A DNA stretch of 64,000 nucleotides from a virus. Position numbers and translations under genes: made by a program. Within the stretch, counting starts at the first letter, position 1. Each line of letters starts with the position of its first letter. Of the stretch, positions 3,183 through 41,200 are shown in pieces. Below the pieces are notes generated by a model. That model searched no databases and was not told the origin of the DNA. It saw nothing but the letters and a program-made list of their open reading frames with translations. The stretch lies in the IMG/VR virus record IMGVR_UViG_3300033186_000013, positions 1-64,000 of that record; one strand, 5' to 3'.

Positions 3183-3688
3183 ACGAAGCATTATCCAAAG
3201 GACTTACCAAACAGGAAGCGCAAAGGGCTTATGATTTGACCAACCTACTTATGACCTTTGATGGTCAGGGTTTTGTTGGTAAAACCACATACAACAGAGA
3301 CTTCAATGTGCATTGGACGGAACTCATAACTTTTTCAGTTGAAAAATGGGATGAATTAATCAAAGGGCTTCGCAAAGTTTTGAACGAAAGACTGCCTGAC
3401 CGCCCATCAATACAGCACGGATTCATTACTCAAAAATGGGTCGTTGATGAAGATGCTTTTTCAATTTACGACGCGTTATCAACCGATACTATTTGCCAGT
3501 TTTTTGACGACGAGTGCGACGGTGATGCGACGTTCTTTAAGAACAGACACGAAATTGCAAAAGCAATAGCAGTAGTGCCACAACTTGTGCAACTTGCAGA
3601 AATGTATTTTGACACACTAAAATCAAAAGGTGCTTACGACAGCGTGCCATTCAATTTAGCATTAGAAACACTTAAAAGTTTAGAATGA
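3179..3688 (+). CDS. hypothetical protein
   Basis: ATGA-coupled chain. No motif recognised. Confidence 0.6.
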   Translation: MNEALSKGLTKQEAQRAYDLTNLLMTFDGQGFVGKTTYNRDFNVHWTELITFSVEKWDELIKGLRKVLNERLPDRPSIQHGFITQKWVVDEDAFSIYDALSTDTICQFFDDECDGDATFFKNRHEIAKAIAVVPQLVQLAEMYFDTLKSKGAYDSVPFNLALETLKSLE

Positions 3689-4026
3689 AATTAGAACGAA
3701 CAAAACAATGTAAAACTTGTCCCTTCAAAAAAGGGAATGACCCTTTTGATATTCCAAATTACGACGAGGAATTACACGAAGGGTTGAAGTCAACTATTGC
3801 AACTGATTTAAGTTTCGGAGACAGTTTGAAAATTATGGCTTGCCATTATTCTAAAATTGGAAACGAAACACCTTGCGTCGGATGGTTGGTTAACCAACTT
3901 GGGGCAGGAAACAACATAGGGCTTAGATTAAAGATGATGTCCTGTGAAAATGCTGATGAAATAGAAGTGTTCGGAGAACAGCACGAAAAATTTGAAGATA
4001 CATTACCAAAAAACAGAAACAAATGA
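3685..4026 (+). CDS. Cys-rich putative zinc-binding protein (paralogue of 8743..9108)
   Basis: The motif set CKTCPFKK, ACH and PCVGWL is shared with ORF 8743. It is reminiscent of DUF6283-type proteins, recalled from memory and unverified. Confidence 0.5.
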   Translation: MKLERTKQCKTCPFKKGNDPFDIPNYDEELHEGLKSTIATDLSFGDSLKIMACHYSKIGNETPCVGWLVNQLGAGNNIGLRLKMMSCENADEIEVFGEQHEKFEDTLPKNRNK

Positions 4027-4685
4027 TAGTTAAAATTAAAAACGAATTAACAGTAAACGGCGCGGGAAACCTAACCGTAGGAAGCACTCACGAAGTAGTT
4101 GCTTGTCCTAAAGAATATGAGAACAGATATAAGCATTGTATTTGGGTGATGGGCGAAACAGAGCCTATCAGATTACACCAAAGGGAATTTGAGATTATTG
4201 ACAGTAAAGACCCGACCCATCCTGCATACGCAATAGATGTTATTGAAATTGATATGGATGCTATGGGTAAGGCTTTGTCAGAGCAGTTACAGGAAAACCC
4301 ACAGTTTGCAGGAACTAATTACGAAATGCGTACAAGCCTTGCTATCATCAAGGGCGTATCCATCGCCACAGATGATGAAGCCTGCTACTTTGTAGATATT
4401 CATAAAGGGATGGACTTAGACTTCTACAAAGAGCGCACACAGAATTTCGATGAAGAAGGGAATTCTACTGGATACAGTATTGCAATGTTCCCATCAGGCG
4501 GAGTTACACTTACGCTGCCTGACATTCTTAAATTCAAAAAGAGAGACACCAATCTTGCTGAATTTATGGGTAGCAGATTCGGGTATAACCCTCGAATCAT
4601 AACGAACACACTTCACTTGATGAAGCACATAGAGGAACAAAAAGAACTTGATTCTCGCAGAGTAAAATTTGAATCTAAAAAGTAG
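4023..4685 (+). CDS. hypothetical protein
   Basis: 220-aa ORF in the coupled chain. No motif recognised. Confidence 0.6.
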   Translation: MIVKIKNELTVNGAGNLTVGSTHEVVACPKEYENRYKHCIWVMGETEPIRLHQREFEIIDSKDPTHPAYAIDVIEIDMDAMGKALSEQLQENPQFAGTNYEMRTSLAIIKGVSIATDDEACYFVDIHKGMDLDFYKERTQNFDEEGNSTGYSIAMFPSGGVTLTLPDILKFKKRDTNLAEFMGSRFGYNPRIITNTLHLMKHIEEQKELDSRRVKFESKK

Positions 4686-4688
4686 GAT

Positions 4689-5621
4689 ATGGACTTATTT
4701 AAAGGACACAATCCTTTTAGAAAGAGAACTGCTCAACAGGCTATGCCAACCGAAGCGGACATATCTATATTAAAAGAGATTGCAAAACTCACAGAAAAAA
4801 GAATCGAAACTGCCAGTCGATTGGCAGAAGATTATCAAGATGATTTTGACCGTATTACTGCTGATATAAATGAGATTTTAGAATACAACAGCACCTTAGA
4901 GGATGTTGGCAAAAACGATTTTCGTTTGGTCAATATTCCTCAAACTATTTTGGACGCGTATAATAAGGCAAAAGAGGCTTTAGGGATTGTTGGCGCAGGA
5001 AGCAAAACTACATACAGAAAAGAGCGTTTAAGAGAGATTCTAAAGAACGGTTTTGTTCCTAATGTAGATGCAGAATATATGTGTCATTACCCCGAAGATT
5101 TTGACAGGAAACTTGATAAAAAGGGCAACTGGATTATGATACTTGGAGACTATGCCATAGAGAATGCGCCCGACAAGTATAGTTTCCATTTTGCTACGCC
5201 AAAATCAAGACCTCATCATTTAGGAGACATGAAGGGTAGTAAGGCTTACCGCCTTTGGTACGCAAGTATAATTTGCAATAACCGAGAGGTGCTTATGAAT
5301 CCTTACGAGTATATTGTTGTGAGAGACATTGATACCATTCTTGATTCCGTAGATAATGGTATCAAAATGATTGAAGGAACTGCGTCAGCAAGGCTTGACA
5401 AAACCAAAGTGTTTTATCTAAAATCTCGTGGATTTTCACAGGCAGAAGTTTACAGAATACTTTTCAAGTCCGTTAAGACTAAGGGTGTTTGTCATTTTCA
5501 AGCCGAACCCGAACTATGCGAAATGTATGACTTGATACAGGAAGGATACCGCCCGACAATGGCACAGAAAATTGTCGAGCATTACAAAAATCTACCAACA
5601 GTTAAATTCAAAGCAGTATGA
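4689..5621 (+). CDS. SufB/SufD-like protein (only the C-terminal region is recognisable)
   Basis: The C-terminal segment EGTASARLDKTKVFYLKSRGFSQAEVYRILFKSV matches the conserved SufB/SufD C-terminal block (G-R-I/L-D then F-Y-L-R/K-S-R-G-I/F). The gene is ATGA-coupled to the SufC-like gene. The N-terminal ~200 aa are unrecognised. Confidence 0.6.
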   Translation: MDLFKGHNPFRKRTAQQAMPTEADISILKEIAKLTEKRIETASRLAEDYQDDFDRITADINEILEYNSTLEDVGKNDFRLVNIPQTILDAYNKAKEALGIVGAGSKTTYRKERLREILKNGFVPNVDAEYMCHYPEDFDRKLDKKGNWIMILGDYAIENAPDKYSFHFATPKSRPHHLGDMKGSKAYRLWYASIICNNREVLMNPYEYIVVRDIDTILDSVDNGIKMIEGTASARLDKTKVFYLKSRGFSQAEVYRILFKSVKTKGVCHFQAEPELCEMYDLIQEGYRPTMAQKIVEHYKNLPTVKFKAV

Positions 5622-6346
5622 TTAAGATAACAGGGCTTGAATGCCAAATAAAAAAGACGCAGATACTAAAAGGTATCGACTTGACAGCAAAGAAGGGCGA
5701 GATTCACGCTATTATGGGTAAAAACGGGTGCGGTAAATCAACTTTACTGCATACCTTGATGGGAAACCCTATCTATAAGGTGAATAACGGAAGTGTTGCT
5801 CTTAATTCTAACGACATAACAAGGGCAGAGGCAGACGATAGGTCTAAACTCGGTATGTTTATGTCTTTTCAGACACCCTACGAGTTTTTAGAGACAACCA
5901 CGTTAGAGATACTTACCCGTATGTGGGCGAAGGCTACTGGCAAGGACGCTAAAGCAAGCGATTTTGTTAACGCCAACAAAAAGGTTTTGGAAGAACTTAT
6001 GATAACAGATGAAATGCTAAACAGGGACTTCAATGTTGGGTTTAGCGGTGGTGAAAGAAAGCGTTTAGAGGTGCTTCAAATGCTCATCCTTAAACCATCT
6101 ATTTTGTTACTGGATGAAGTCGATACAGGTCTTGATATTGACAGCATAATACTCATAGGGAATGCCTTAAAGGATTATCAAAAAAAGAACAAGGCAACGG
6201 TACTCATCGTTACTCACCTATCTACCTTCCTAAAATACTTAGTGCCAAATAAGGTACACGTAATTCGTGATGGTGTGATAGTAAAAACTGGAAGCAAGAA
6301 ACTTGCCGAGCAGATTGTAGAAAAAGGATATTCATTTATAAAATAG
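5618..6346 (+). CDS. sufC: SufC-like Fe-S cluster assembly ABC ATPase
   Basis: Walker A GKNGCGKST, Q-loop MSFQTPYEF, signature FSGGERKRLEVLQMLILKP, Walker B LLLLDEVDTGLDIDSI, and H-loop region IVTHLSTFLKYLVPNKVHVIRDGVIVKTG. All closely follow the SufC pattern. There is no transmembrane domain. Confidence 0.85.
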   Translation: MIKITGLECQIKKTQILKGIDLTAKKGEIHAIMGKNGCGKSTLLHTLMGNPIYKVNNGSVALNSNDITRAEADDRSKLGMFMSFQTPYEFLETTTLEILTRMWAKATGKDAKASDFVNANKKVLEELMITDEMLNRDFNVGFSGGERKRLEVLQMLILKPSILLLDEVDTGLDIDSIILIGNALKDYQKKNKATVLIVTHLSTFLKYLVPNKVHVIRDGVIVKTGSKKLAEQIVEKGYSFIK

Positions 6347-6350
6347 AAAT

Positions 6351-6539
6351 ATGGAAACACCAAACAACACCGTAAGTAGAAAGCAGGAACGCAAACTATT
6401 TGTTTCAATAATAGTCCTGCTAATTGTTACCTATTATTACGCAGTATTCAGCCTTCAATCAGAGGCTAACGACCTTCGTAAAGAGTTAGACTCTTGCAAA
6501 GAAACACCTGTGCATTATGTTCAAACTGATAGCCAATAA
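6351..6539 (+). CDS. small membrane protein
   Basis: Single hydrophobic helix LFVSIIVLLIVTYYYAVF. Confidence 0.55.
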   Translation: METPNNTVSRKQERKLFVSIIVLLIVTYYYAVFSLQSEANDLRKELDSCKETPVHYVQTDSQ

Positions 6540-7796: not shown

Positions 7797-8606
7797 ATGG
7801 CTCAAAAGAAAGACATATTAAAGGAACTATCCGCCCCGCTCGACATATCAGATGTTGATTTTAGAATACAATCCATCAGCGAAAAAGGGTACGCTACAAT
7901 ACTCGCGTATAAAGATGCGCGTGTTGATATGAATAGGCTTGATGAAGTCTGTGGAGTTCATTGGCAAGACAAGTACGAACTCATCGACGGTCAACTTTTT
8001 TGCTCTATCGGAATAAAGGAAGGCGACGAATGGATTTGGAGAATGGACGTTGGTACAGAAAGCCAAACTGAAAAAGAAAAAGGTCGTGCCTCTGACGCGT
8101 TTAAGCGTGCGGGTTTCCGTTGGGGAATCGGCAGAGAGTTGTATGATTACCCGCGTATATTTCTGCAACTAAAAGGCACTAATGATATTTCAGGAAATGA
8201 AAAGCCTGAATTTACAGTAAAAGAGGTTCAAACCCAACGAGGTAAAAAGAAAATCGGCACTTCGGGTTGGGGTCTTAGACTTGATAAGTGGGAATGGACT
8301 GTGGCTTTTGGTGATGATGGTAAGGTGATGAGGCTTATAGGTAAAGACCAACACGGCGCAGTTAGGTTTGATTCAGATAAAGAATTCAATGGACTTCCTA
8401 AAGGAAACCAACAGCCCGCGACACCGCCCGCAAACCCACCTCAACCTGCGCAGAAAAAGAAGCCTAAACTAACTAAGGCTAAATACGAAAAAGCAATGCA
8501 GTCAACAGATGTTGAGGCGTTGACAAAAGCGTTGACTGCTTTTGAATTAACCCAAGACCAATTAGGAAACCTAACATTGAGAATTGAGGAACTAAAACAA
8601 GGGTAA
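7797..8606 (+). CDS. Rad52/Sak-type single-strand annealing protein
   Basis: KGRASDAFKRAGFRWGIGRELYDYP matches the Rad52/Rad22 family core (K-G-x-x-S-D-A-x-K-R then G-I-G-R-x-L-Y). The C-terminal tail is P/Q-rich. Confidence 0.75.
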   Translation: MAQKKDILKELSAPLDISDVDFRIQSISEKGYATILAYKDARVDMNRLDEVCGVHWQDKYELIDGQLFCSIGIKEGDEWIWRMDVGTESQTEKEKGRASDAFKRAGFRWGIGRELYDYPRIFLQLKGTNDISGNEKPEFTVKEVQTQRGKKKIGTSGWGLRLDKWEWTVAFGDDGKVMRLIGKDQHGAVRFDSDKEFNGLPKGNQQPATPPANPPQPAQKKKPKLTKAKYEKAMQSTDVEALTKALTAFELTQDQLGNLTLRIEELKQG

Positions 8607-8765
8607 ATGAAACGATTAAAGTTTGAACTTAGAATGCTGTTTGCAGTTTGGATAATGCAACTTCTTATGTGGATGCTTCCGCGTTCGACATTCAAGAACA
8701 ACTATACTTATTTTTTAATAGCGAATGTAAACAATCTTGATTATGATAAATCTGACGACGTGTAA
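8607..8765 (+). CDS. small hydrophobic protein (52 aa, not in ORF track)
   Basis: Translation starts MKRLKFELRMLFAVWIMQLLMWMLPRSTF. The ORF begins 1 nt after the upstream stop. Confidence 0.3.
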   Translation: MKRLKFELRMLFAVWIMQLLMWMLPRSTFKNNYTYFLIANVNNLDYDKSDDV

Positions 8766-9108
8766 AAAGATGTGCAACGAGTGTCCTTTTCATAAGGATT
8801 CTCCTGCGGGTTGGCTTGGCGACCACTCCATAGGGGAAATTACCAATGCAATTCAATTTGAGCAACTATTCTCGTGCCATAAACAAAGAGGCGAAAGCCC
8901 TGCTTTGAATCAAAAGCAACTGGAAAGCGGTGAGCAGAATGTATGCAGAGGTTTCTTGCTATCAGCAACAAAATCTTGTAAAATGTTCGGGCAAAATCCT
9001 CAAACGGGAAAAGAACTACGGAAACTTCAAAGCAATTTGGAGATAACCGACGACGAGAGAGAAAACGTATTGTCTAAATGGGACTTTGCTAAACACCACG
9101 ATATATGA
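8743..9108 (+). CDS. Cys-rich putative zinc-binding protein (paralogue of 3685..4026)
   Basis: Carries CNECPFHK, SCH and VCRGFL. Track start 8737 is a TTG. ATG 8743 or ATG 8770 are more likely starts. Confidence 0.5.
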   Translation: MINLTTCKKMCNECPFHKDSPAGWLGDHSIGEITNAIQFEQLFSCHKQRGESPALNQKQLESGEQNVCRGFLLSATKSCKMFGQNPQTGKELRKLQSNLEITDDERENVLSKWDFAKHHDI

Positions 9109-9852: not shown

Positions 9853-10090
9853 GTTAAAGGTATTAGAGAAATTTTTTGAAGAAACAGAATTATCAGATGA
9901 ACCAATTAGATTCGACCAATGTAGTGTTATCACAGACCAAAAAAAGTTTGTTGATTCCCACCTCTCAATCCTTCGAGCAAATTCAGGAAACAAAAGTGCA
10001 ATGCCTTACTACGATAGGCTATTGAAATATTATTATTTAATTAAAAATCAAAACGATTATGGCAACAGAGCAAAAAGAACAGGTAATTAA
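9833..10090 (+). CDS. hypothetical protein
   Basis: 85-aa ORF that overlaps both neighbours by ~20-30 nt. Confidence 0.45.
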   Translation: MLMKRVKLKVLEKFFEETELSDEPIRFDQCSVITDQKKFVDSHLSILRANSGNKSAMPYYDRLLKYYYLIKNQNDYGNRAKRTGN

Positions 10091-10862
10091 GGGCGAGTAC
10101 AAAACGGAAAGCACCAAGAAAGCGAGAGAAAATGCAAAGATAGATTCGGCGCAGGTATTAAAGATACCTCTCTCCAAAGTAGCAATCCTCGAAAACTTTA
10201 ATGTCCGTCAGGACTATGGGGATTTAGATGAGTTGGCTAACTCACTATTGAATAACGGGCAACTTATCCCTGCGATAGTTGACTACTCCGAAGGAAAGTA
10301 TATCCTTGTTGAAGGACACAGGCGTTACAAAGCGTTCCTAAAAATTTGGAACGACACAGGCAATGAGCCGTATCTACGCGCCACAGTAAACGGAACGCGT
10401 ACATCTATGGAAGATAGAATCTTTCAGATGTTCATATCACAGGACAATAAGAAGTTAGAGCCGTATGAGATTTCGGATTTGTTTCAGCGTCTTGAAAACT
10501 TAGGTTACACCGCAGGCGACATCGCCACCAAAACAGGCAAGTCAGCCTCATACGTTTACAAAGCACTTGCCTTTCAGAAACTACCACAGAAACTAAAGAA
10601 CGACGTAAAGAAGGGGACTATCTCTTTGAGTACGGCTTTAGAATCTGTACAGGATGTTGGACTGGAAGAAACTATGGAGAAGATTGACAGCCTGAAAAAA
10701 TCAGGTGTCAAGAAAATAAGTAAGGGCGCAATAAAGCGTAAGCCTATGGACGAAGCCTTGAACCGATTGAGAGTTGAGTTCTCGGCATTGGAAAATCCTG
10801 TTACTGGCGCAGAGGCTTTGGAAATCATAGAGATAATCTTCGAGGAAGAAAAGAACCGATAG
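10059..10862 (+). CDS. ParB N-terminal domain (ParB/Srx) DNA-binding protein
   Basis: The N-terminal block NFNVRQDYGDLDELANSLLNNGQLIPAIV is followed by LVEGHRRYKAF (ParB box, GxRR). Downstream lies the HTH-like segment GYTAGDIATKTGKSASYVYKAL. Confidence 0.7.
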   Translation: MATEQKEQVIKGEYKTESTKKARENAKIDSAQVLKIPLSKVAILENFNVRQDYGDLDELANSLLNNGQLIPAIVDYSEGKYILVEGHRRYKAFLKIWNDTGNEPYLRATVNGTRTSMEDRIFQMFISQDNKKLEPYEISDLFQRLENLGYTAGDIATKTGKSASYVYKALAFQKLPQKLKNDVKKGTISLSTALESVQDVGLEETMEKIDSLKKSGVKKISKGAIKRKPMDEALNRLRVEFSALENPVTGAEALEIIEIIFEEEKNR

Positions 10863-14393: not shown

Positions 14394-14831
14394 ATGACCG
14401 AGAATGATACGGACTTATTGGTAATAGAAAAAGACCCTGTGGTTGTTATGATATTTAACTTGGTTAAAAAGCACACAGGGCTTTCGGTAGATGACTTAAA
14501 AACCATCAGCAGGAAAAGACATATTGTTGTTGCCCGTCAGTTGAATATGTACTTTATATGCAAGCATACAAGATACACGCTGCAAGCAGTAGCAGATATT
14601 TTTAAACGCGACCACGCTACGGTTTTACACGCGAAGAAAACTATTAGCGACTTGATTGATACCGACAGAAAGATACGCTCATTAAATGAGGCTATCGAAG
14701 ATGAAATCAGTCAGCACAAAAGCAGGTTTAAGAAAACAAAATACTCCGTGTTCCAAGACCTTTTAGTTGAGGCGGGAGTTGATGATATTGAACGTAAGGA
14801 TTGGATAGATAAGTACCTAAGTGCGGAGTAA
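14394..14831 (+). CDS. DnaA domain IV-like DNA-binding protein
   Basis: SRKRHIVVARQLNMYFICKHTRYTLQAVADIFKRDHATVLHAKKTI follows the DnaA C-terminal HTH signature (R-x-x-x-x-x-A-R-Q-x-A-M-Y then R-D-H-T-T-V-x-H-A). Confidence 0.7.
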   Translation: MTENDTDLLVIEKDPVVVMIFNLVKKHTGLSVDDLKTISRKRHIVVARQLNMYFICKHTRYTLQAVADIFKRDHATVLHAKKTISDLIDTDRKIRSLNEAIEDEISQHKSRFKKTKYSVFQDLLVEAGVDDIERKDWIDKYLSAE

Positions 14832-20283: not shown

Positions 20284-21114
20284 ATGGCAACAGATAGTAA
20301 AATACAATGGACTGACCACACCGTTAATTTTTGGACAGGGTGCATAAAAGTTTCGGAAGGATGCAAATATTGTTATATGTACCGAGACAAAGACCGATAC
20401 GGAAAAGACCCGAAGGAAGTGGTGAAGGTTAAAGATTCCACAATCAACAAAGTTCTTCGGGATGCAAAATCAGGAGATAAAATATTTACCTGCTCTTGGT
20501 CTGATTTCTTTATTGAGGAAGCCGACCAATGGCGCGAATGGGCTTGGGATATTATTCGTTCCCGACCCGACCTAAACTGGCAGATACTTACCAAGCGTCC
20601 TGAACGGATACAAGATTGCCTTCCCGAAGATTGGGGCGATGGTTGGGACAATGTATGGCTTGGTGTATCAGTAGAGAATCAGAAAAATGCAGATGCACGT
20701 ATGCCTATATTGGCTTCTATTCCTTGTAAGGTTAGATTCATTTCAGCAGAACCATTATTGGACTTGGTTCAACTTATGAATCCAGTAGTGGATAGTTTCA
20801 TTATGGGCGACACAAGACATAGAAACATTATATCTGTTCCACCCGAACCCGCTTTGTTCTATTACCATTGGGTTATCGTTGGCGGGGAAAGTGGTAATGA
20901 TAACGGAAAGTATAGATACCGACCAAGTAAACTGTCTTGGTATTTGCAAATCATTAATGATTGCCGAAAGCAAAACGTTCCTGTATTCTTAAAACAATTA
21001 GGAACTCATTTAGCAAAGACCAATAAATTAAACGATAGGCACGGCGGTAACATAGATGAATTCCCCGCCCCAATAAGAATTAGACAATTTCCAAATACAC
21101 AGAATTATGAGTAA
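20284..21114 (+). CDS. phage Gp37/Gp68 family (DUF5131) protein with N-terminal Cys cluster
   Basis: Contains IQWTDHTVNFWTGCIKVSEGCKYCY (C-x6-C-x2-C), WQILTKRPERI, VWLGVSVENQ, FISAEPLL, WVIVGGESG and VFLKQLG. These are the conserved blocks of that family as I recall them. Confidence 0.75.
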   Translation: MATDSKIQWTDHTVNFWTGCIKVSEGCKYCYMYRDKDRYGKDPKEVVKVKDSTINKVLRDAKSGDKIFTCSWSDFFIEEADQWREWAWDIIRSRPDLNWQILTKRPERIQDCLPEDWGDGWDNVWLGVSVENQKNADARMPILASIPCKVRFISAEPLLDLVQLMNPVVDSFIMGDTRHRNIISVPPEPALFYYHWVIVGGESGNDNGKYRYRPSKLSWYLQIINDCRKQNVPVFLKQLGTHLAKTNKLNDRHGGNIDEFPAPIRIRQFPNTQNYE

Positions 21115-27169: not shown

Positions 27170-27996
27170 TGGCAACAGGAGAGACTTTAACAGACCAACA
27201 ATATTACGAGAACCCCGAACTTTGGGGAGAGGCACAGTATATAACACTAAAAAACGTTATAGACAACATAATTATTACGGCAGATGACGACAGTTACTTC
27301 AAGCACGTAAAGTATTTCAGAGCATCCATTCACGGGAAAATGGGTATCAAGAAATTAAATGTTGACCTCAAAGCAGAGAACAAGGCTATAAGTATTGAGT
27401 TGGGCGCAAATCGAACTTTCCCGTTCCCTAAGTATATGACTAATTGGAGTAGGGTTTCTGTTCTAAATAAGTGCGGAAAACTTGTTCCGTTAAACACAAA
27501 CGCAAGCCCGTTGATTAGAGATTATTTGCAAGATAATGATGCAGAGTTACTGTATGATTGCTGCGGAACAGTCCTTGAAGGTCATCCGTTTAATGCAGAG
27601 CAAGGAGATTGCTGTTATCAATTTGAATGCCCTGATGTTCATTGCGGATGTGAAGAAGAAAACTTTGACGACAGTTGGGTTAAGGAAGATAAGAAGGGCG
27701 GATACTTTGTGTTTAGCGACGACTTAGTTGATAGGCTTATCGTAATAGAATTCCAGTCAGCAGGATTAGATTCTTTAGATGACTGTGATATTAAGATAAA
27801 CCACAACCTTGAACACACAATAACCACTTATATAAAGTGGAAACTTGTTGAAGGCAAAAGGAACGTTCCGATGAATGAAGTTTTATACTGGAAGAACGAG
27901 TATAAGATAAATAAGAAAAGAAGTAAAAATTTACTCTCGGATAAAATAACATTAGACCAAATTATGAGGTCTGTATCCCTTAGATATAATGGCTAA
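27169..27996 (+). CDS. virion structural protein candidate (tail adaptor/tubular-A position)
   Basis: 275 aa. The call rests only on its position before the 1330-aa protein. Confidence 0.3.
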   Translation: MATGETLTDQQYYENPELWGEAQYITLKNVIDNIIITADDDSYFKHVKYFRASIHGKMGIKKLNVDLKAENKAISIELGANRTFPFPKYMTNWSRVSVLNKCGKLVPLNTNASPLIRDYLQDNDAELLYDCCGTVLEGHPFNAEQGDCCYQFECPDVHCGCEEENFDDSWVKEDKKGGYFVFSDDLVDRLIVIEFQSAGLDSLDDCDIKINHNLEHTITTYIKWKLVEGKRNVPMNEVLYWKNEYKINKKRSKNLLSDKITLDQIMRSVSLRYNG

Positions 27997-30900
27997 AATT
28001 AGAAACATTTTTGTTCGCGGTGTAATGGATAAAGACACCGATAGAGCCTTTATTAAGCAAGGCATACATAGAGACGCTTGGAATTTAAGATTTCATACCA
28101 ACGGTGGAGACGACGGTGTTGGCAATAATATCAAAGGAACTTTTGAAATTAGTGATGCCACAGAAGGGAGAACCGATTTAAAGTGTGTAACGGCTTTTCA
28201 TAATGAGGACTTAGATGTTATTTATTATTATCTCGCAAGCACCGCAGGTCAGTTCAGTAAGATTGTCGAATATGACATAAACAATGACACGACCACAGAC
28301 ATACTTCACGACACGTTAGGAATTCTAAACCTTGATAAAGACGGATATATTACTGGAATCAACGAGATTGATGGTCTTTTGTTTTGGTCAGAATGGGGCA
28401 GAAATCCAAGAAGGATAAATGTGGAACGGGCAAAAACCTACGGAACTAATGGGTTTTCAGAAGATGATATTACTGTTATTGTAAAACCGCCGTTCCAAAA
28501 ACTAAGGCTTACTCTCGAAAATACAGATACAGAGACGCAGCAAGAAAACAATATTGAGGAAAAGTTTTTATACTTCTCATACCGATACCGTTATTTAGAT
28601 GGTGAATATAGTGTATTAGCCCCATTTACAAAGGCAGCATTTAAGCCACGAAATTTCCAGTATGATTTTGTTGAGCAGTCAAACCGAAGTATGGTTAACA
28701 GATTCAATCAAGTATTAATTGAATTCAATACAGGAAACGAAAGAGTAACTGAAATACAACTCGTATTCACCGAGAGCGAAAGCAATGCTGTTTGGATTAT
28801 TGATGATTTTGTAAAAGCCAAACTTGGTTACGGTGATAATGAGATTCAGAGTTTCCCGTTTTTCAACAATAAAGTTCAGCGTGCTTTAAGTAGCAACGTT
28901 CTTCCTAATATGTTCGATAATGTTCCTTTAACAGCAAAGGCGCAAACCATTATCGACGGAAGGCTTATATACGCTCACTACAAAGAAAACTACAACATCA
29001 TTGATTGCGATGAGAACCCTATTGAGATTGATTATACTGTTGAACTTGATGCGCAACCAAATACCGTTCAAGAATCTCAAACGGTGTATGATGAAAACAA
29101 CAACGTTATAGGTACAGAACTCGTAGATGTTCCAAGTTTAGAGCCTTTGGAATCCTGTAAGAGCAACCGAGATTATGAAGTTGGAATTGTTTATGGGGAC
29201 GATTTCGGTAGAATCACAACTATATTAAACAGTAAAACTAATACGAGGTATATTCCTAATGAAAATAGTGTTACTGCGAACAGTCTTGATATTGTTCTAA
29301 AGCATAGACCGCCTTGTTGGGCGACATATTATCGTTTCTTTGTCAAGCAATCCAAAAAAGGATATGACCAACTTTTGCCTACATTGTTTTATGAAGATGG
29401 GGTTTTCCGTTGGGTTAAACTTGAAGGAGCGGACAGGGATAAAGTAAAGGAAGGCGACTACCTAATTGTCAAATCTGATACACAAGCACCGATAGAGCCT
29501 TTGATAAAGGTAAAGGTTCTTGAAGTTGTAGAGCAAGAGAAAAACTTTTTACAGCCTGACGATGTTGTTGATTCAATAGAAGAAAGAGCGGGCTTGTATT
29601 TCAAAATAAAGCCCGAAGGATTCCGAATTGACTTAGATGATTACGACAACTTCTTACTAAACACTTATGACACTTCTGCAAATAGACACGATAATCCTGT
29701 TTCGGGTCTTACGCAATACATTAGTGAGGCTCATTATTACGGCGACACATTGAATGATTTAACCACAGGCGGAACATATACTGGCTCGTCGGGAGAACGT
29801 TTAAGATTCCTCATTAAAATAGACGGTCTTGCCACAGGTGGCGACCCTGATACTTTTAGATGGAGTATTGATGATGGTGCTAACTGGAATCAAACTGACA
29901 TTGATATTGTTGCAGGAACGCCAGTTACTTTAATGGACGGTGTGCAAATAACTTTTGCTAACGACAACGGACATTCATTACTTGACGAGTGGAATGTAAA
30001 TGCAACTGCGCCTTTTGGCACATCGGCAAATTCAAAAGCATACGCATTCTTTCGCGTGTTCGGTCAGAACGGAGAAATACTTACCGACCCTGATGACGAG
30101 AAGATATTTGCAGGGGCAAGAATTAGATTGGTTTATGATGAATATAACGAAGGTAATACTCAATGGGAAGTAGATGTTATCGCTAATGGAAATTACGACA
30201 ACATTCAGGAGTGGTTTTACAAAGAGGATATTTTTTCCGAAATATCTCCTGCGATGACCATTGATAGAATTCGTTTTGTTCGTGGTGTCTTATATCCTGA
30301 TGGAAGTGCAAATCGAATACAACAAGATTTGACAGAAGGAATTATGACTATGGTTGTTCAGTCGAATGCGACACAGAATAACGACCTTGACGGAAGGGTT
30401 AAGGTTCGTTCTTCGTCCGAGATATTGCAGGCTGACAACAATAACAGAATTGTTTTTGAGACAGAACCAACAGACCAACCGCCTGATATTTACTTTGAGG
30501 TAGGTAAAAATTACAGAATCATAAATGGATTCCACAGCCATATAACAAATAACTTTGAGACAGAAATACCGAATACTACTGGCGACCAATCCCAAACAGC
30601 AACGCAAGACCTTCGTGTAAAGTTAGATTGGTTCAACTGTTTCAGTTATGGGAATGCCGTAGAGAGTTATAAAATAAGGGACGAGTTTAATGCCAAAGGT
30701 CTTGATGTAGGTGTTAGACCATTGAGCAACATACGAGAAGAATATAAAGAAGTTACCCGTGTTGCTGACATAACGTGGAGCGACCTTTATAATGATGACA
30801 CCGATTTCAATGGACTGAATACTTTTAATCTTTCGTTGCTGAACTTCATAAAACTTGACAAGGAAGAAGGTAGTATCCAAAAAATATTCAATGACGGAAA

Positions 30901-31981
30901 CAGGAACATCCTTGTTCTTCAAGAAGATGCGATAGGTATAATGCCATACAATAAGCAAATCATTAATGACGTAGAAGGTGGCAGAATAGTTGGTATAGCC
31001 ACAAATGTACTCAATAGAAATAGTTATCGTGAGTATGCTCGTGGCAAGCACGGAATATCAAAGAACCCTGAAAGTTTCATATCAATAGGCAGTCGAAGAT
31101 ATTTTACTGACCAACAAAGAGGTGATTTAATAAGACTGGCTAATGATGGAATTACAACCATAAATCAAAATCTATTAGAACACGAGTTTTCCAATTTGAT
31201 GTCGGCAAATAAACTGAACAAAATGGTTGGCGGGTATGACCCGAAACACGGTGAGTATATGCTTCATTTACCATCAGAAGAAGGTACGCTTACGTTTAAA
31301 GAAATAGCAAAGGGATTCCCTAATTATTTCTCGTTCCAACCTGACTTTATGCTTGGGGCTAACAATGAGTTCTATGCTTGGAAAGATGGTGTTATGTATC
31401 GAATGAATGCTACGGAAAACCGTAATGAGTTTTTCGGAGAACAATTTGACAGCAAAATAGTATTCTTTGTAAATGATTCTTTTAGCGAGGAAAAGGTTTT
31501 TAATGCTATGGGTATTGAAGGCTCTCACGCTTGGGATGTGTTTATTGAGACAAGGCTAACTTCAAGGGATATTCCAAAAGAATGTTTCACTAAACTTGAA
31601 GATTTCTTTTACTCTGAAATAATGGGTAACACTAACGGAGTTACAACTGCAAGTAGTATTTTTGGTTTAGGGGAATACGCCATTACTGGCGGAGAAATAT
31701 TCTATGATGTTCTTCCTGAATCCCTATGTGTAGGTGATTTTATAAGGAGTGCTAATCTTCTTTTTACACCAATAGAAATAACAAACATTCTTCCCGACAG
31801 GATTGTACTTGCTACGCCGTTTACCGCCGTATCATCATTCCTTATGTACGAGAAGAATCAGAATATTGATGGCAGCGACATAAGAGGCGATGTAATGCGC
31901 GTAGAAATGGTCAACAATGACACAGAAAAAATAGACCTTCGTGCTGTTAGATTTGAAGTTCAAAAATCCAATTACTCATAA
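27989..31981 (+). CDS. large virion structural protein (tail nozzle/tubular-B-like by position)
   Basis: 1330-aa uninterrupted ORF in the late module. No catalytic motif seen. The functional label is positional only. Confidence 0.35.
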   Translation: MAKIRNIFVRGVMDKDTDRAFIKQGIHRDAWNLRFHTNGGDDGVGNNIKGTFEISDATEGRTDLKCVTAFHNEDLDVIYYYLASTAGQFSKIVEYDINNDTTTDILHDTLGILNLDKDGYITGINEIDGLLFWSEWGRNPRRINVERAKTYGTNGFSEDDITVIVKPPFQKLRLTLENTDTETQQENNIEEKFLYFSYRYRYLDGEYSVLAPFTKAAFKPRNFQYDFVEQSNRSMVNRFNQVLIEFNTGNERVTEIQLVFTESESNAVWIIDDFVKAKLGYGDNEIQSFPFFNNKVQRALSSNVLPNMFDNVPLTAKAQTIIDGRLIYAHYKENYNIIDCDENPIEIDYTVELDAQPNTVQESQTVYDENNNVIGTELVDVPSLEPLESCKSNRDYEVGIVYGDDFGRITTILNSKTNTRYIPNENSVTANSLDIVLKHRPPCWATYYRFFVKQSKKGYDQLLPTLFYEDGVFRWVKLEGADRDKVKEGDYLIVKSDTQAPIEPLIKVKVLEVVEQEKNFLQPDDVVDSIEERAGLYFKIKPEGFRIDLDDYDNFLLNTYDTSANRHDNPVSGLTQYISEAHYYGDTLNDLTTGGTYTGSSGERLRFLIKIDGLATGGDPDTFRWSIDDGANWNQTDIDIVAGTPVTLMDGVQITFANDNGHSLLDEWNVNATAPFGTSANSKAYAFFRVFGQNGEILTDPDDEKIFAGARIRLVYDEYNEGNTQWEVDVIANGNYDNIQEWFYKEDIFSEISPAMTIDRIRFVRGVLYPDGSANRIQQDLTEGIMTMVVQSNATQNNDLDGRVKVRSSSEILQADNNNRIVFETEPTDQPPDIYFEVGKNYRIINGFHSHITNNFETEIPNTTGDQSQTATQDLRVKLDWFNCFSYGNAVESYKIRDEFNAKGLDVGVRPLSNIREEYKEVTRVADITWSDLYNDDTDFNGLNTFNLSLLNFIKLDKEEGSIQKIFNDGNRNILVLQEDAIGIMPYNKQIINDVEGGRIVGIATNVLNRNSYREYARGKHGISKNPESFISIGSRRYFTDQQRGDLIRLANDGITTINQNLLEHEFSNLMSANKLNKMVGGYDPKHGEYMLHLPSEEGTLTFKEIAKGFPNYFSFQPDFMLGANNEFYAWKDGVMYRMNATENRNEFFGEQFDSKIVFFVNDSFSEEKVFNAMGIEGSHAWDVFIETRLTSRDIPKECFTKLEDFFYSEIMGNTNGVTTASSIFGLGEYAITGGEIFYDVLPESLCVGDFIRSANLLFTPIEITNILPDRIVLATPFTAVSSFLMYEKNQNIDGSDIRGDVMRVEMVNNDTEKIDLRAVRFEVQKSNYS

Positions 31982-32526
31982 TGATTATAGCAAGAGACAA
32001 TTACTTAGAGGCAAACACTTTTGATGCTCTTATAGATTACTGTAAGTCTGATTTTCAGATAGTAAAAATGGGAGAAAAAGAGTTTTCTGTTCTTGAAACT
32101 CCAAAGGACTTACTGCCTTTGTTAGAGGTAGAAGGACACAATTTGATTTTGTCATTCATAAGAAGTGCGCACGAAAACTTTGATACTGATTTAAGGATAC
32201 ACGCCGACCATATAATTGAAGGAAAGAAAGCCGTTCTCGCATCAGTATTATACATAGAAGTAAAAGATAGCGGAACTGCTTTTTATTCGCATAAACAATA
32301 CGGTAGCATCCTGCCTGTTACTGTTTCAAATGAAGAATTCGATAGACTGATTATAGAGGACAGTAATGATGAATCGAAATGGATTATGACAGACTTTATT
32401 TCAGGTGTCCCAAACAGGCTTTTGATGTATGATGCTAATATGTTTCACAGCAAATACCCGAAGGTTATCAAGAACGGTGTTAGAAAAGTGTTGGTCAACT
32501 TTTATGAGAGGGCTGAAATGCCTTAA
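31981..32526 (+). CDS. 2OG-Fe(II) oxygenase-superfamily-like protein
   Basis: Contains RIHADH (H-x-D), ASVLYIEVKDSGTAFYSH, and NRLLMYDANMFHS (distal His). This fits the pattern recalled for phage and bacterial 2OG-Fe(II) oxygenase-like proteins. Confidence 0.5.
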   Translation: MIIARDNYLEANTFDALIDYCKSDFQIVKMGEKEFSVLETPKDLLPLLEVEGHNLILSFIRSAHENFDTDLRIHADHIIEGKKAVLASVLYIEVKDSGTAFYSHKQYGSILPVTVSNEEFDRLIIEDSNDESKWIMTDFISGVPNRLLMYDANMFHSKYPKVIKNGVRKVLVNFYERAEMP

Positions 32527-35214: not shown

Positions 35215-38200
35215 ATGAACGAAGAATATTTATTAGGGGTATATAATGAGTTCGGCGGACAAGATTCTTTAAAGACCGACTTTAAAACTTGGGTGTCTCG
35301 CATTCAGAATAATAACGAGTACAAGAAAGGTATATTTACCCATTTCGGCGGTCAGTCAAAATTGAACACTTCTTTTGACGAATGGAATAGCCGTGTGTTC
35401 GGAGTAAAAAAAAAAGTCAGTCCCCAACAGGATACTACTTCAACTTCAAACGTTGGAGAATTGGATACGTCAACTACGGAAGTTGGTGGGTCTTTGGAAT
35501 CACAAACAGATAATTCTTTTAGGTCATTAATAAATGAGCCTAAAGTTCCTTTGGATTTTGAACCAAGAGCGTTTTTCCCGAAACCAACATTTGACAACAT
35601 AAACGGTGTTAAGCCCTTTATAGAAAACCCTGATTTTGATTTCGAGCAATTATCACAGCAAGGCGGTACAGAGATAAGTCCTTTTGGTTTCAATCAAGCA
35701 TTCATAAGAAATCCTGATTTTAATGAGACTATTCAGGACGGAACACAAATAGTATTAAATTCAAAGTTCGACAGAGACAAGCCTGTATCGGAAGAAAACC
35801 CTGAATTTTTACAGGTGCGTATCCCGCAACCCGAAGATAAGTTTTTCAGAGCAACAGATGATGAGTTGAAAAAACTTGAAGAATTCGAGAACCTTCAACA
35901 ATTATCACAGGAAGAATTGTCTGAAATTGACAATCAAATCAAAGAAGAAGAATCGGGAGATTTTGGGTTCTTTGGGAACATCAAAAACGCCATAGTATCA
36001 ACCCCAACTTTCGGAACTACATTTAACCCATTTTTCTCTCCGCAGAATCTTAGCAAAGTTTCTAAGCGCGAAGATTTAATTGCAGCAAAAATAAAAGAGA
36101 AAAGGGTAGATTTTTTATCAGATTTGGACGATGACGAAAAAGATAAAATCCAATCATTTGTTCGTACCAAAAATTTCTTGGCAGACCAAAACCGTCAGAA
36201 ATTAGAACGTGAGATAAATACTTTGGATGAGGGTCTTATCCAAACAAGAGATAGTGTCGCAACAATAGATAATCGTTTCAATGAGATTGAAACTGAAAAA
36301 CAAAAACTTCAAGACCAAGCAACTCGTGGTGGGGACGTTAATCAGTTGAGAACATCGTTTGATAACTTGATTAGTGAGCAAGGCAAACTAATTGAGCAGA
36401 GAAACGAAATCATTACTAATGCTGAACCCGCATTAAACGAGCGAATCAACAAACTAAATCAACTTGAAAACAGCGTTACCAATATCGGTACGATGGAACA
36501 AGAACTTGATTTACTTAAAAGAAACTATGGTTTTCTTGATAATGTTGTTACACGCGTGGGAATAGGGTATGCTAATTTGGCTGCAAATTTTGTGTTCCAG
36601 TTCGAGAGGTCAGAACTAAACAACAAACGTCAACGTCTTAAATTCATATTATCAAATGGACTTCAAGACGATGAGCGATATAAAGACTTTGTTCCGCCTG
36701 TTTACCGAATAGAAGGCAACGAATATAATGAGGAAGAATTCGACAAAGAGACAGAGGAACTTCAAAAAAGACTTCTTAATAGTACAATCGTAGGCAAAGA
36801 GATACTTGACAGACAACGAGAAAACATTAGACCAAGCATTTCTGTTTCGGATATAAACAGTTTTGGTGATGTTGTTGATTTTACAGTAGATGGTCTTTCA
36901 GATAATGTCGCCACAGTTCATCAGTTGGCTATACCTTATGTTGGTCAGACTTCATTTGTAATCGGTCAACAAGCCGATGCGGAGATAAACATTCGTCGCA
37001 AAGAAAAGGCAAACCGAGAAGAACTTGCATCTATAAAAACCCAACTTCAACAGGAAGGGATTTCAGATGAAGATAGAGCCACCCTTGAAAAAAGAAAAGA
37101 GTTTTTAGAAAAGAAAGAGCCTTTGTCTGATGGAAAAGTGTTCTTAGCATCTACTGGAATGGCTTTGTCCGAGTTGGCATTCAGCAGGCTTTTTGGTGAG
37201 GTTAAAAGAATCAATGTCGGAAAACGGGTTTTAAAGGACGCTACCACTCAACAACTTTCAGGACAGGTAAGACGCTCTGTAAAAGATAGGTTCAAAGACG
37301 TATTGAAGGGCGGTGGTGAAGTATTGAAAGATGCTGCCGAAGAAGGATTTTTAGATGAATTCCTTACAAACACAACACAGAACGCTATCAATAAGTTTTA
37401 CTTGGGAGATTCCGAAGTGGGTTTATTTGATAATTCATTGGATGCAATAGGTGGCGGGTTCTCCGTTGGTGGTGTTTTGTCTGCTGCTCCAAGAACTGCG
37501 GGTGCATTTTTGAGCCACATATCAAATAAGAATAAAAGGAATCAAGTTTTTAGCAATGTCAAGGAAATAACAGAACTTCAAAGATACCTTGATGAAACAC
37601 CTGATTTAGAACAGAGTGCCATAGACATCACTCAATCTAAAATTCAGAAATTGCTCAATGACAATAACCAAATTATTGGGGAAACAGTTGATAATTTCGA
37701 CAACCTTGATGATGATTCTAAAAAGAGATTACTCGAAGTATCTAATGAAATCGTTTCTTTAGATATTACATTGGATAAGTTGAACAGAAAAAACAATCTT
37801 ACCGACGCGGAGAAAACACTAAAGACAGAGGTTGAAGGAAGGCTGAATACTTTAAATTCTGAACAAGACATCATTATAAACCAAAGAGTTCAACTTGAAG
37901 TTGATGGCAATAGTTTCTTGACCAATAAAGAAGATTTCCAAAAGTTTATTCAGGATGATGCAAATGTACAGTCTATAATTGACGGAAGCACAAATGTTGA
38001 GATAGTGAACAACCAAGAACTTGCTGATGCGCTCGACACGCGCATAAAGGAAGTTACTGACGGCGTAACACGAGACAGTAAGGATAATTCATTTAATCCA
38101 TTAGAAAGTGAAGGAGAAGCCATAGGAAGGCTTGTTGAGAACATAGATGATACGACTTCTTTAGAGGATGTTGCCAAAGCGCATACAGACAGTTATGTAA

Positions 38201-41200
38201 ACTATCTGCAAGAGCAAGGTGTTACAGATGATGTGTTGAACTCGAACTTTGTTCAATCTTTTGAAGAACGAATTGTAGATGCGTTAAGCCGTCCTGATGA
38301 ATTCGATTTTAGTCAACCGAGAACACAGGATAATGGTAGTCGTGTAGATAACGATGGTAATTCCATAACCGAAACAGAATTTTTGCAGAACCAAAACAAA
38401 CTTGAAACTGGATTTGAAGGGATTGATTCAATCATATCAGAACAGCAAGATACTAACACCCAAGAAGATACTGATGTTGAAACTAATGTTGATACACAAA
38501 ACAATCAGAATGCAGATGTTGATTTAGAGACATTCGTAAACCAAATAGGCGAATCTTCATCAACAGTATTGGAAGATACTTTAGGCGCAACAGTAGATGA
38601 TACCCGTATTTTATTTAAAGAAAAGAACGGAAATATCTCTATTGAACAAATGCAAACCGCAAGAGACAGTAGAGGTCAAGGTAGTGCGAGAAAAGCATTA
38701 ACTAAAATAACTGAAATCGCAGACCAAACAAACAAGACACTTCAACTTAATGTAGTCCCTTTAGATGACACAACAACAGAAGAAGGATTGATTTCTTTAT
38801 ACGAAAGTTTTGGTTTTAAAAAAGATAAGGACTTTGATAATGAGGACGGGGGCTTAATGTTTAGAGAGCCTAATACGCAAACTGATTTTCAATTTGAAAG
38901 TTCACAACCAAGAATACAGGGCGAGCAATTATCTAATCTTGTTATAAGGCTTCAAAGAACGGGTCTTGCAGAAGGTGTAACTGTTTTGTCAGAAAATGAT
39001 TTTACAGCCAAACTAAAAGAGATTGGTCAGGATTCAAATGTCGTCCCGAATGGTTTTGTTAGCGATGGTACTGTTTTCCTAAACAGAGACAAGGTTAAGC
39101 AGGATACCCCTATACACGAATTCGGTCATTTATGGAACTCATACGTGAAGCAAAATAACCGCGATGTCTATGACACGGGTATAAACCTTATACGTGATAG
39201 CGAATACCATAAGGCTATTCAAAACAATAATCAATACGACAACCTATCAGAAGAACAAAAACTTGAAGAAGCGTTGGCGCAGGCTATCGGAGATAAAGGT
39301 GTTAAGATTTTAGACGAGAGTAGAAAAAGTAAGTTTACTCAATGGTTCAGAAATTTATTTACTCAAATTGCTCGCGGTCTTGGTTTAAGGGGTCTTACGG
39401 GAACACAATTATCTCGCCTTAATTTAGATAGGTTTACCGACTTAGCAAGTGCCGAAATATTGAGTGGTCAAAACATTGACACTCAAACACAGACCACGAA
39501 TCAAGTAGATAGTTCTATTGATGCAATTATCTCGGAACAAAAGGCTATTCAAGAAGCAAAAAATAAATTGCTCGAAAAGTTCAGAAGCCGTAACACAACG
39601 GTTGAAGAAATAAAGAAAGACCTGATTAGATACATTCGTTCAAGCATAAATAGTGCGCGAGTTAATGAGATTCAAAAAACAGAATTGAATAAACTTCTGA
39701 ATGCTGTCAGGAAGGCTAAAACAAAACGAAGCCTACAAAAATCATTCAATGAGGTCAATGACATTGTTACCGTATTGGATAATAGAATTCTAAAACGACG
39801 CATTGATAGGATTCTCGGCAGCAAACTTTCTAAAAAAGAAAGTGGTCGCCGTAAAGCAAATACCATTTCAGAAGAATCAAGAATAATTCTTGAATCAGTA
39901 AAAAACAATATTGACACTCCGAAATCCAGTCCAAATGATGCGAGAACTTCTACACAGAGAAGATTGGATAAACTTGATGAGTTGTTAGGTAAACGAGACG
40001 AATTATTAGAACTCGACACGCTTACAGAAGCACAAGATTCCGAGATAGAATCATTGAGCATTTCTATTGATTTACTAAACGCTATCACAACAAAGGACAT
40101 CAATAATGAAAATGAATTGCTTACAGGTGCTTTAGAGCAATTAGACTTTATTCAATCTACGGGTAGAAGCCAATTAAGAGAACAGAAGGAAGCAATACAG
40201 CAAGAGGACAATGCCTTGATTGATTCCATAGAAGATGATATAAACCCCGAAGGTAAAACTTCGTTGAAGTCCCTTAAAGAGTTAGAAAACGAAAGTCGTG
40301 TCGCCAAGAACATAGTTGATATTGTCCGTAAGCAAGCAAGACGAACTTTCTTTACACTTTTTCAGGGAACAGTAACGGGAAGTTTAGACAGTTTATCAAC
40401 CTTAATATCTCGCAGAGGCGGTGAAAATAGAGATTCGAGCGCATTGGTTCAGTTTGTCAACAAATTAAAACGACGAGAGACTTTAAAGAAAACGCGTATA
40501 AAATTCTTTTCAAAGAAACTTACTGATAGTCAGAAATCTATATTTGGAAGTATCACGAAAGCCCATAAACTTTTAAATAAAAGGGTTGACATAGATTTGA
40601 TGCGTCGTCCAAACTTGAACCCTGATGAAAACCGAGAGCCAGTAACAGTTCCGTTGACTTATTCACAAATGTTAAATGTTTGGATGAACGCTAAAAACGA
40701 TAAGTTGAAAGCGGGTCTTGATGCCAATGGATTTACGCCTGATGTTATTAAAAAGATTGATGAGATTCTTCCGCCAAAAGTAAAGGAGTACGGTGATACT
40801 CTTTTCAATATATATGAGGAATTGTACATCGAATCTAATGATGTTTACAAAAAGATGAATTTCCACTCTTTAGGCAAGCCCGATTTCTACGCGGGTAAAG
40901 TTTATAGGGATTCAAAAGACACTCCTGAATCTTTAAGAGAGGACACCAACGCCTTGTTGGGTGGTGTTTCAAGCATAAATTCAACTGGATATTCTTCTCA
41001 AAAGGAACGTATTAATAACGATAACCCTATTCAGGCTGTTGATGTTAACTTTTTAGTTAATCGTCAGATTCAAGAATCGTCTCATTATGTGGCATACGCA
41101 GAGGTTCACAGGCAATACAATAAACTTTTAAAGGACAAGAAAATTCAGAAGGCTATACGGTTGAATAATCCTGAAACTGCTGATGAAATCATAAGTATTC

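Follow-up and report, generated by a model that had tools for sequence, protein, structure and literature searches.

A phage gene cassette encoding a SufC-type ATPase and a protein that shares the SufC-docking segment of SufB and SufD

We analysed a 64,000-nucleotide stretch of viral DNA (positions 1 to 64,000 of the IMG/VR record IMGVR_UViG_3300033186_000013, hereafter called the window) in which three consecutive genes encode a protein of 220 aa (U), a protein of 310 aa (A) and an ATPase of 242 aa (B). Judged by its motifs, B is a catalytically intact SufC-type ATP-binding cassette (ABC) ATPase. The C-terminal segment of A is, by profile comparison, homologous to the region through which SufB and SufD dock onto SufC. 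Our best guess is that U, A and B would form a phage-private, SUF-derived and ATP-driven complex for iron–sulfur (Fe-S) handling or maturation, a reading to which we assign a probability of about 0.45.

Both A and B were found as open reading frames (ORFs) where a previous sequence-only reading of this DNA had placed them. They are coupled by an ATGA overlap of 4 nt (5618–5621). All SufC motifs claimed in that reading were present in B, namely GKNGCGKST, FSGGERKRLEVLQML, LLLLDEVDTGLDIDS, IVTH and VHVIRDGVIVKTG. With the NCBIfam equivalog model for SufC, TIGR01978, B scored 246.4 bits (cutoff 212.8), while the next unrelated ABC family reached 110 bits; the gammaproteobacterial model NF007134 was not passed (189 vs 400). 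The best matches of B in the PDB were SufC of Thermus thermophilus (1.6e-52) and of Escherichia coli (1.9e-47), followed by ABCB transporters at about 4e-32. Hence B does not fall among generic ABC ATPases, the outcome that the sequence-only reading had named as speaking against it: SufC was the best assignment with TIGR01978 as well as in the PDB. The catalytic set is complete and comprises the Walker A Lys, the Q-loop Gln, the signature, the Walker B Glu, the D-loop and the H-loop His. Residues K40, Q85, E167 and H200 of B align to the catalytic residues of E. coli SufC, for which Walker A Lys40, Lys152, Walker B Glu171 and H-loop His203 served as reference, and the signature FSGGERK carries a Lys at the position of SufC Lys152.

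B belongs to a phage clade of 18 protein clusters with lengths of 242–243 aa and identities of 57–100%. Between this clade and the cellular SufCs, whose identity does not exceed 46%, the score drops sharply from 286 to 215 bits. PHROGs places B under generic 'ABC transporter', and PADLOC gave generic ABC similarity only (best 81 bits, partial), far under the SufC score. A transmembrane-like segment was found in none of U, A and B (maximum of the Kyte-Doolittle 19-residue window 1.07, 0.46 and 1.38, respectively), and for this reason an ABC transporter made of the three proteins was rejected. Neither SufB nor a full-length SufD is encoded near B in the window; its neighbour is A.

Three parts can be distinguished in A: a helical N-terminal part (aa ~9–138), a beta-rich family core (~140–230) and a C-terminal segment (~212–268). 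Only the last of these can be aligned to SufB and SufD, matching residues 348–389 of E. coli SufD. The resemblance that the sequence-only reading had seen over the last ~90 aa is real but shorter, covering ~45–55 aa within aa 212–268. A itself scored 18.3 bits with Pfam PF01458 (SUFBD_core, cutoff 27), the match spanning 31 residues at the extreme end of the profile, and 18.2 bits with the sufD model TIGR01981, which requires 222 (E 1.2e-3). When the profile of the window clade was compared with the PDB, E. coli SufD came out on top (E 0.016), and comparison with a small SufB/D alignment by hhalign gave a probability of 50% (E 1.6e-4). The profile of distant short members of the family gave 95.9% with the same alignment (E 5.8e-9, 55 columns at the SufB/D C-terminus), and its only significant PDB matches were SufD (8e-6) and SufB (5e-5), with the SufBD-type structure 4dn7 as a weak third (E 0.023). 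As a single sequence, the family member P0165 reaches 30.2 bits with Pfam SUFBD_core and so exceeds the gathering threshold. Since the two family profiles are mutually linked at E 1e-14 to 1e-22, the homology of A to SufB/D is sound by transitivity. The C-terminal segment of SufB/D belongs to the SufC-docking domain, in agreement with what the sequence-only reading had said of the matched part (PMC6006206, PMC5571166).

Outside this segment A does not resemble SufB or SufD. An AlphaFold2 model of A (mean predicted local distance difference test, pLDDT, 76, i.e. moderate) consists of a helical region at 9–138, a short beta region at 147–229 and C-terminal helices. Foldseek searches with this model retrieved no SufB/D and nothing at E < 0.1 from the PDB, and from BFVD a single 203-aa protein whose TM-score of 0.28–0.40 makes the match not useful. 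Two SufB/D-like features of A had been named in advance as those whose absence would count against the assignment; a beta-helix was indeed not detected with AlphaFold2 and Foldseek, whereas the homology of the C-terminal segment is present by hhalign. Because no SufB/D fold was matched and only the docking segment can be aligned, we conclude that A is not a member of the SufB/D family and is a new protein sharing their docking segment. The first ~200 aa, described before as unrelated, are unrelated to SufB/D, but aa ~125–230 form the conserved core of a phage-specific family. Conservation of A is strong, with 53 invariant columns in 13 sequences at 42–73% identity. PHROGs holds no family for A, and PADLOC returned no matches for A or U.

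Within the docking segment, aa 234–259 of A read ARLDKTKVFYLKSRGFSQAEVYRILF. The equivalents of SufD Tyr374, Arg378 and Gly379 are Y243, R247 and G248, all of them invariant; SufD Phe393 aligns to F/V267 in the A clade, and the position of SufD Ala385 is taken by V254. The Fe-S ligand His360 of SufD is replaced by an invariant E229 in the A clade, at a position that is variable in the wider family. A region equivalent to that of SufB Cys405 (ligands Cys405 and Glu434) was not found in A. Since A has neither the beta-helix nor counterparts of the SufB Cys405 region and of the ligand His360 of SufD, the complex would not be a canonical Fe-S scaffold.

The family of A was collected by an exhaustive profile search over 1.84 billion representatives and comprises at least 109 representative clusters that share aa ~125–276. 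Locus contexts were taken as flanks of 4–8 kb, and the whole span was covered for the window and the Microbacterium phage genomes. Long forms of ~290–345 aa carry an N-terminal helical extension; they were studied in the window clade and in L023, L041 and L042, four lineages in total (loci other than the window are given by L numbers). In all four, a downstream SufC-type ABC ATPase gene overlaps the long-form gene by 4–11 nt, as seen in the window, L005, L008, L011, L013–L015, L017, L023, L041 and L042. The best family of the paired ATPase was always SufC (window 246, L023 151, L041 219 and L042 152 bits), and A of L041 is ~30% identical to A of the window. The ATPase of L023 (L023:5938-6600) lacks ~15 residues between Walker A and Q-loop, and its 151 bits lie under the SufC cutoff; here the start of the tblastn match lies 42 nt upstream of the called one and in another reading frame.

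Short forms, in turn, have ~180–260 aa, and an ABC ATPase was found within 4 kb of a short form on none of seven distinct viral contigs. A third subfamily of ORFs with 254–294 aa occurs on seven IMG/VR contigs of 74–676 kb, six of which have 345–676 kb; it is marked by the motifs 'NYFP..G.G.W[IV]K[IV]' and 'VFYLQSRGIS', and again no ABC ATPase lies within 4 kb (0/7 contigs). A true SufB–SufC locus (L036) served as positive control for the ATPase scan. Viral contigs were also scanned with the single proteins P0155 and P0139, without a match. The only cultured carriers of the family are four Microbacterium phages, in which the gene is annotated as 'hypothetical protein' and whose genomes are absent from the set of phage records with a SufC-like gene. 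The survey of phage databases for the gene pair, which the sequence-only reading had called for, thus found the A–B pairing in four long-form lineages and solo short forms elsewhere. GenBank 'phage' records with SufC (Listeria, Staphylococcus, Enterococcus, MaAM05, MT835488) were set aside as host DNA, as they contain complete host-type suf operons. Such operons were seen in L002 (MT835488.1), in L003 (MW495066.1, Microcystis phage MaAM05, at the record end) and in L004 (PV200784.1, Staphylococcus phage ISU935), with the gene sets sufCBDSU or sufBCDS-iscU plus panC or met transporter genes; they are probably host DNA or misassembly and not phage auxiliary genes.

Both sides of the docking interface differ between paired and unpaired proteins. 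In cellular SufCs, sampled as the 100 best hits, the Q-loop is followed by a segment FQxPxE(I/V)PG, whose Gly is present in 100 of 100 sequences. The 18 phage-clade ATPases have FQtPYEFFE at this place, with Glu in all 18, and B of the window has FQTPYEFLE, so that the cellular Pro-Gly is exchanged for Phe-Glu in most of the clade and for Leu-Glu in the window. Glu is also found in the three other paired lineages (FPE, IPE and VPE). On the partner side, 96 family representatives with a recognisable motif were compared (77 short, 19 long). Ala at position RG+6, the equivalent of SufD Ala385, occurs in 68 of the 77 short forms vs one of the 19 long forms. Long forms have Val, Ile or Thr at RG+6 in 18 of 19 cases and Tyr at RG+7 in all 19, so that the canonical motif RGIxxxxA becomes RG.xQxxxY in the paired lineages. 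This covariation holds at the level of the classes, long vs short, and not as a contact. As both docking sides are changed in all four paired lineages, the paired systems probably possess a co-evolved, re-keyed interface that is insulated from SufB, SufD and SufC of the host. The solo short forms keep the canonical motif and have no phage ATPase nearby, suggesting that they are most likely built to dock on canonical host SufC.

The sequence-only reading had assumed a pair consisting of only a motor and an adaptor. This has to be corrected, because the unit comprises three genes: in every locus of the clade, A is immediately preceded by a homolog of U with 150–220 aa (blastp E 1e-23 to 1e-97, synteny by tblastn), and a U homolog also precedes A in the distant lineage L041 (profile 88.8 bits, E 1e-28). 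In the window, the start of U overlaps the preceding ORF by ATGA, and U ends 3 nt before A. The flanking genes vary from locus to locus, and only U, A and B are common to all. No match to U was found in Pfam, the PDB or PADLOC. That U is a degenerate SufB/D, or a paralogue of A mimicking the SufB–SufD heterodimer, was rejected on hhalign probabilities of 1% and 0.1%, and a match to T4 beta-glucosyltransferase (E 0.025) was treated as chance. The AlphaFold2 model of U (pLDDT 46, shallow alignment) was unusable.

A possible client of the complex is encoded in the window as well. The DUF5131 protein with a C-x6-C-x2-C motif that the sequence-only reading had pointed out is present and scored 194 bits. 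DUF5131 is listed as a subgroup of the radical S-adenosylmethionine (SAM) superfamily (PMC9477430). It was found near members of the A family in three independent lineages, i.e. the window, L026 and L041, and in L041 it is preceded by an N6/N4 DNA methyltransferase-like gene. Among phage records in general it occurs in 176 of 50,697 (~0.35%) by a single-query tblastn. Three sightings in roughly 30 lineages hint at an enrichment over this background, which is a crude one.

These data can be combined into the following model. A would dock on B in the way SufD docks on SufC. In SufBC2D and SufC2D2, the C-terminal segment of SufB/D binds the groove formed by Q-loop, alpha2 and alpha3 of SufC (PMC6006206, PMC5571166). 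Two B subunits may dimerise head-to-tail on ATP and thereby move two A subunits, or A and U, against each other, a movement modelled on the remodelling of SufB–SufD by SufC dimerisation. The result would be an A–B complex, possibly A2B2 with U. Such a complex might serve in Fe-S handling or maturation for Fe-S enzymes of the phage, with the DUF5131 protein as candidate client. An Fe-S role is indirectly supported in that the paired ATPases still have SufC as their best family after long independent evolution. The suggestion of the sequence-only reading that the phage genes boost Fe-S supply gains indirect support only, from the recurrent DUF5131 neighbours. A wider form of the model is possible but doubtful: a dedicated SufC-docking family, widespread in phages, might control the SUF motor, with solo forms hijacking or blocking host SufC and long forms, together with U and a re-keyed SufC, forming an orthogonal ATP-driven machine for a phage process such as DUF5131 maturation.

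Several points weigh against an Fe-S complex of this kind. For the window clade alone, the similarity of A to SufB/D stays under all curated thresholds, and the A model has its lowest confidence in the docking segment (pLDDT 52–76). The candidate ligands C268, H269 and H298 are invariant only within the window clade; L042 and L023 do not have them. The cellular SufCs used for comparison were the 100 top hits, a set that is not a balanced sample, and the link to DUF5131 consists of three sightings set against a crude background rate. Sulfur donor, iron donor and carrier genes are all absent from the window. Finally, the neighbouring genes of replication and recombination type (Rad52, ParB-like, DnaA-C helix-turn-helix) fit a non-metabolic role equally well.

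The main alternative is that an ABC motor was repurposed as a mechanical clamp unrelated to Fe-S, with a working end made up of U together with A's N-terminal and beta domains, and with an early-infection task in replication/recombination, DNA modification or anti-defence. Such a function would agree with the loss of the beta-helix and of all known Fe-S ligand positions in A, the lack of suf, isc or carrier genes in the window, an interface that appears insulated from host Suf, and a long N-terminal helical extension confined to the paired forms. The neighbours of the cassette also include DNA polymerase A and helicases, and phage DUF5131 often lies beside methyltransferases, so that its link to the cassette could reflect a DNA-modification module. 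We nevertheless regard a clamp as rather unlikely, since the ATPase passes the curated SufC equivalog cutoff despite long divergence and keeps the SufC-specific Lys152 equivalent. Moreover, the canonical docking motif of the short relatives implies continued engagement with host SufC, and no PADLOC or other family match points to another process.

The sequence-only reading had also considered a decoy that poisons the SufBC2D scaffold of the host. As a host-takeover device, A and/or B would titrate SufB, SufD or SufC of the host and so bring its Fe-S assembly to a halt. A retains the docking element and nothing of the scaffold, as expected for a decoy, and the solo short relatives carry a canonical FYLxSRGIxxxxA without a phage ATPase, which makes host SufC their obvious partner; the absence of the Microbacterium short-form genomes from the records with a SufC-like gene points in the same direction. 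In the window pair, however, both docking surfaces have diverged (Gly to Glu in B; the Ala385 equivalent lost and Tyr gained in A), and a catalytically intact ATPase as well as a conserved third gene would be superfluous. We therefore judge a decoy function improbable for the paired cassette, which it fits poorly with both sides of the interface changed; it suits the solo short forms better and may hold for this class. That a recently captured sufC merely adds SufC dosage to host SufBC2D as an ordinary auxiliary metabolic gene (AMG), with A as a decayed sufD remnant, is very improbable: B is a SufC by curated criteria and phage-borne iscU and erpA are known (PMC9038755), but no cellular SufC is more than 46% identical to B, which forms a discrete clade across unrelated phage types and has an altered docking surface, A is strongly conserved in a family of at least 109 clusters and is no pseudogene remnant, and the GenBank 'phage' records with true suf operons look like host DNA.

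Compared with known systems, the cassette that we read as a phage-private, SUF-derived complex is closest to SufC2–SufD2 and SufBC2D (PDB 2zu0, 5awf). Like these, U-A-B has a soluble SufC-type ATPase without a membrane partner, a partner protein with a conserved C-terminal motif (the equivalents of Tyr374/Arg378/Gly379) from the domain by which SufB/D bind SufC, and adjacent, coupled genes, and ATP-driven dimerisation of SufC is the expected power stroke. Unlike SufB and SufD, A with its 310 aa lacks the right-handed beta-helix, the N-terminal SufB/D domain and the His360/Cys405 ligands as well as a region accepting FADH2 or SufE. B differs from SufC in the replaced Pro-Gly after the Q-loop, and the phage unit differs from SufBC2D by the unrelated third protein U and by the lack of sufS, sufE, sufU and sufA. 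The minimal SUF and SMS systems of anaerobic archaea and bacteria (SufB*2C2, SmsCB; PMC12584684, PMC12442378, bioRxiv 10.1101/2024.03.20.586028) likewise combine SufC with a single SufB/D-type partner and are pared down, without dedicated sulfur-transfer proteins. SmsB and SufB*, however, are full-length beta-helix scaffolds for a [4Fe-4S] cluster, whereas phage A shares ~50 residues with them and has no scaffold. The iscU and erpA AMGs of marine phages (PMC9038755) are also phage components derived from bacterial Fe-S biogenesis, but these are single-gene copies of a scaffold or carrier, while the cassette has a motor ATPase and a novel adaptor family without carrier or scaffold.

Within the family itself, gp16/gp18 of the Microbacterium phages Matzah, Cinna, Terij and Margaery (Mementomorivirus) represent the short class. 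They share with A the YxPE...GxWI core and have FYLMSRGIS as their own motif. In contrast to A, they are ~218 aa long, without the N-terminal helical extension, and no ATPase is encoded next to them; they carry the canonical Ala at RG+6, and their genes lie among virion genes. A literature search retrieved phage iscU/erpA auxiliary genes and no description of a phage SufC/mini-SufD module. What is new is a putative soluble ABC complex of SufC–SufB/D type that has been cut down to motor and docking element, has gained new domains as well as a third, likewise new subunit, and is carried by phages.

The window is part of the genome of a tailed phage of the crAss-like type, as indicated by its gene content: it encodes a large terminase, a portal, tail-fibre-like proteins and a crAss muzzle domain (see the table below for coordinates). 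The presence of this domain in the 1330-aa protein is consistent with a crAss-like virion module. A very large ORF of 2453 aa is located at 35215–42576. A near-identity search of the region against the 50,697 GenBank phage records revealed no close relative. Going by the crAss-type muzzle domain and a neighbour with a type IX secretion system (T9SS) sorting domain in L013, the host would be a member of the Bacteroidota.

The cassette loci in general were found on crAss-like contigs of ~40–75 kb and on jumbo-phage contigs of ~350–365 kb. On jumbo contigs, genes for a metallophosphatase, for SmpB and for a sigma-70-like factor lie upstream of the cassette (L008:1-4376; L015:1-2937), and in L008 only, an RNase R-like protein (RNB+S1) is encoded there in addition; SmpB is a translation-rescue gene and unusual in a phage. 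In L006, a 422-aa TnpB-type gene (OrfB_IS605 / Cas12f1-like TNB; L006:2122-3390) is inserted upstream of the cassette at a distance of a few genes, as one variant of a jumbo-phage region that is otherwise identical to L005.

In the window, A and B are part of a long co-directional array of overlapping or tightly packed genes, whose recognisable members around A/B also include DUF3268 and are of replication/recombination type. Among the ~45 window ORFs scanned there was no sufB, sufS, sufE or carrier gene. Scans for promoters and terminators gave counts equal to the shuffled expectation and hence were uninformative. Two paralogous Cys-rich DUF6283 proteins with a CxxCPF motif are encoded at 3685–4026 and 8737–9108, and it is the first of these that overlaps the start of U by ATGA; it was rejected as a fourth cassette member, being syntenic in no other locus. 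A 62-aa ORF with one strong transmembrane-like segment follows B directly (6351–6539); since related loci do not have it, it probably does not belong to the cassette. The gene described in the sequence-only reading as 2-oxoglutarate (2OG)-Fe oxygenase-like is probably the ORF for the DUF6445 protein, a family that we take to belong to the 2OG-Fe clan. Enzymes of this type use mononuclear iron and not Fe-S clusters, so that the DUF6445 protein is no obvious client of SUF.

Table 1. Positions of the cassette genes and of other features mentioned in the text (window coordinates unless a locus is named).
Feature	Position	Strand	Remark
U, 220-aa protein	4023..4685	+	first cassette gene
A, 310-aa mini-SufD-like adaptor	4689..5621	+	
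Docking segment of A (aa ~212-268, incl. FYLKSRGFSQAEVY)	5324..5492	+	HMMER to PDB SufD, hhalign
B, 242-aa SufC-type ABC ATPase	5618..6346	+	TIGR01978 and PDB matches
Rad52-like	7797-8606		
ParB-like	10059-10862		
DnaA-C helix-turn-helix (HTH) protein	14394-14831		
DUF5131	20284-21114		194 bits, C-x6-C-x2-C
1330-aa protein	27989-31981		C-terminal crAss muzzle domain
DUF6445 protein	31981-32526		27.4 bits
Large terminase	42945-45245		
Portal	45299-47722		
DUF5131	L026:6891-7646		2.3 kb from solo form
DUF5131	L041:2407-3180		0.8 kb upstream, same gene array as U-A-B
Third-subfamily ORF	L031:3488-4252		
Third-subfamily ORF	L032:3347-4153		
Third-subfamily ORF	L033:3539-4303		
Third-subfamily ORF	L034:3482-4252		
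Third-subfamily ORF	L035:3383-4267		
Third-subfamily ORF	L037:3407-4267		
Third-subfamily ORF	L038:3488-4360		

SUF is the sole or the stress-critical route of Fe-S assembly in many bacteria, including Bacteroidota, Actinobacteria and Firmicutes. If the solo forms block host SufC, they would hit an essential target wherever SUF is the only Fe-S pathway. SufC is under discussion as a drug target (bioRxiv 10.64898/2026.09.25.754312). Natural small proteins that dock on SufC would define a minimal SufC-binding module, and the family would supply ready-made probes or inhibitors of SufC. The paired, re-keyed systems would represent a natural experiment on how the specificity between an ABC ATPase and its partner is rewritten. 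A testable hypothesis is now attached to an unannotated phage family and to the common radical-SAM-like DUF5131 protein of phages. If it is true, the SufC-docking family would constitute an unrecognised class of phage–host interaction that targets Fe-S biogenesis.

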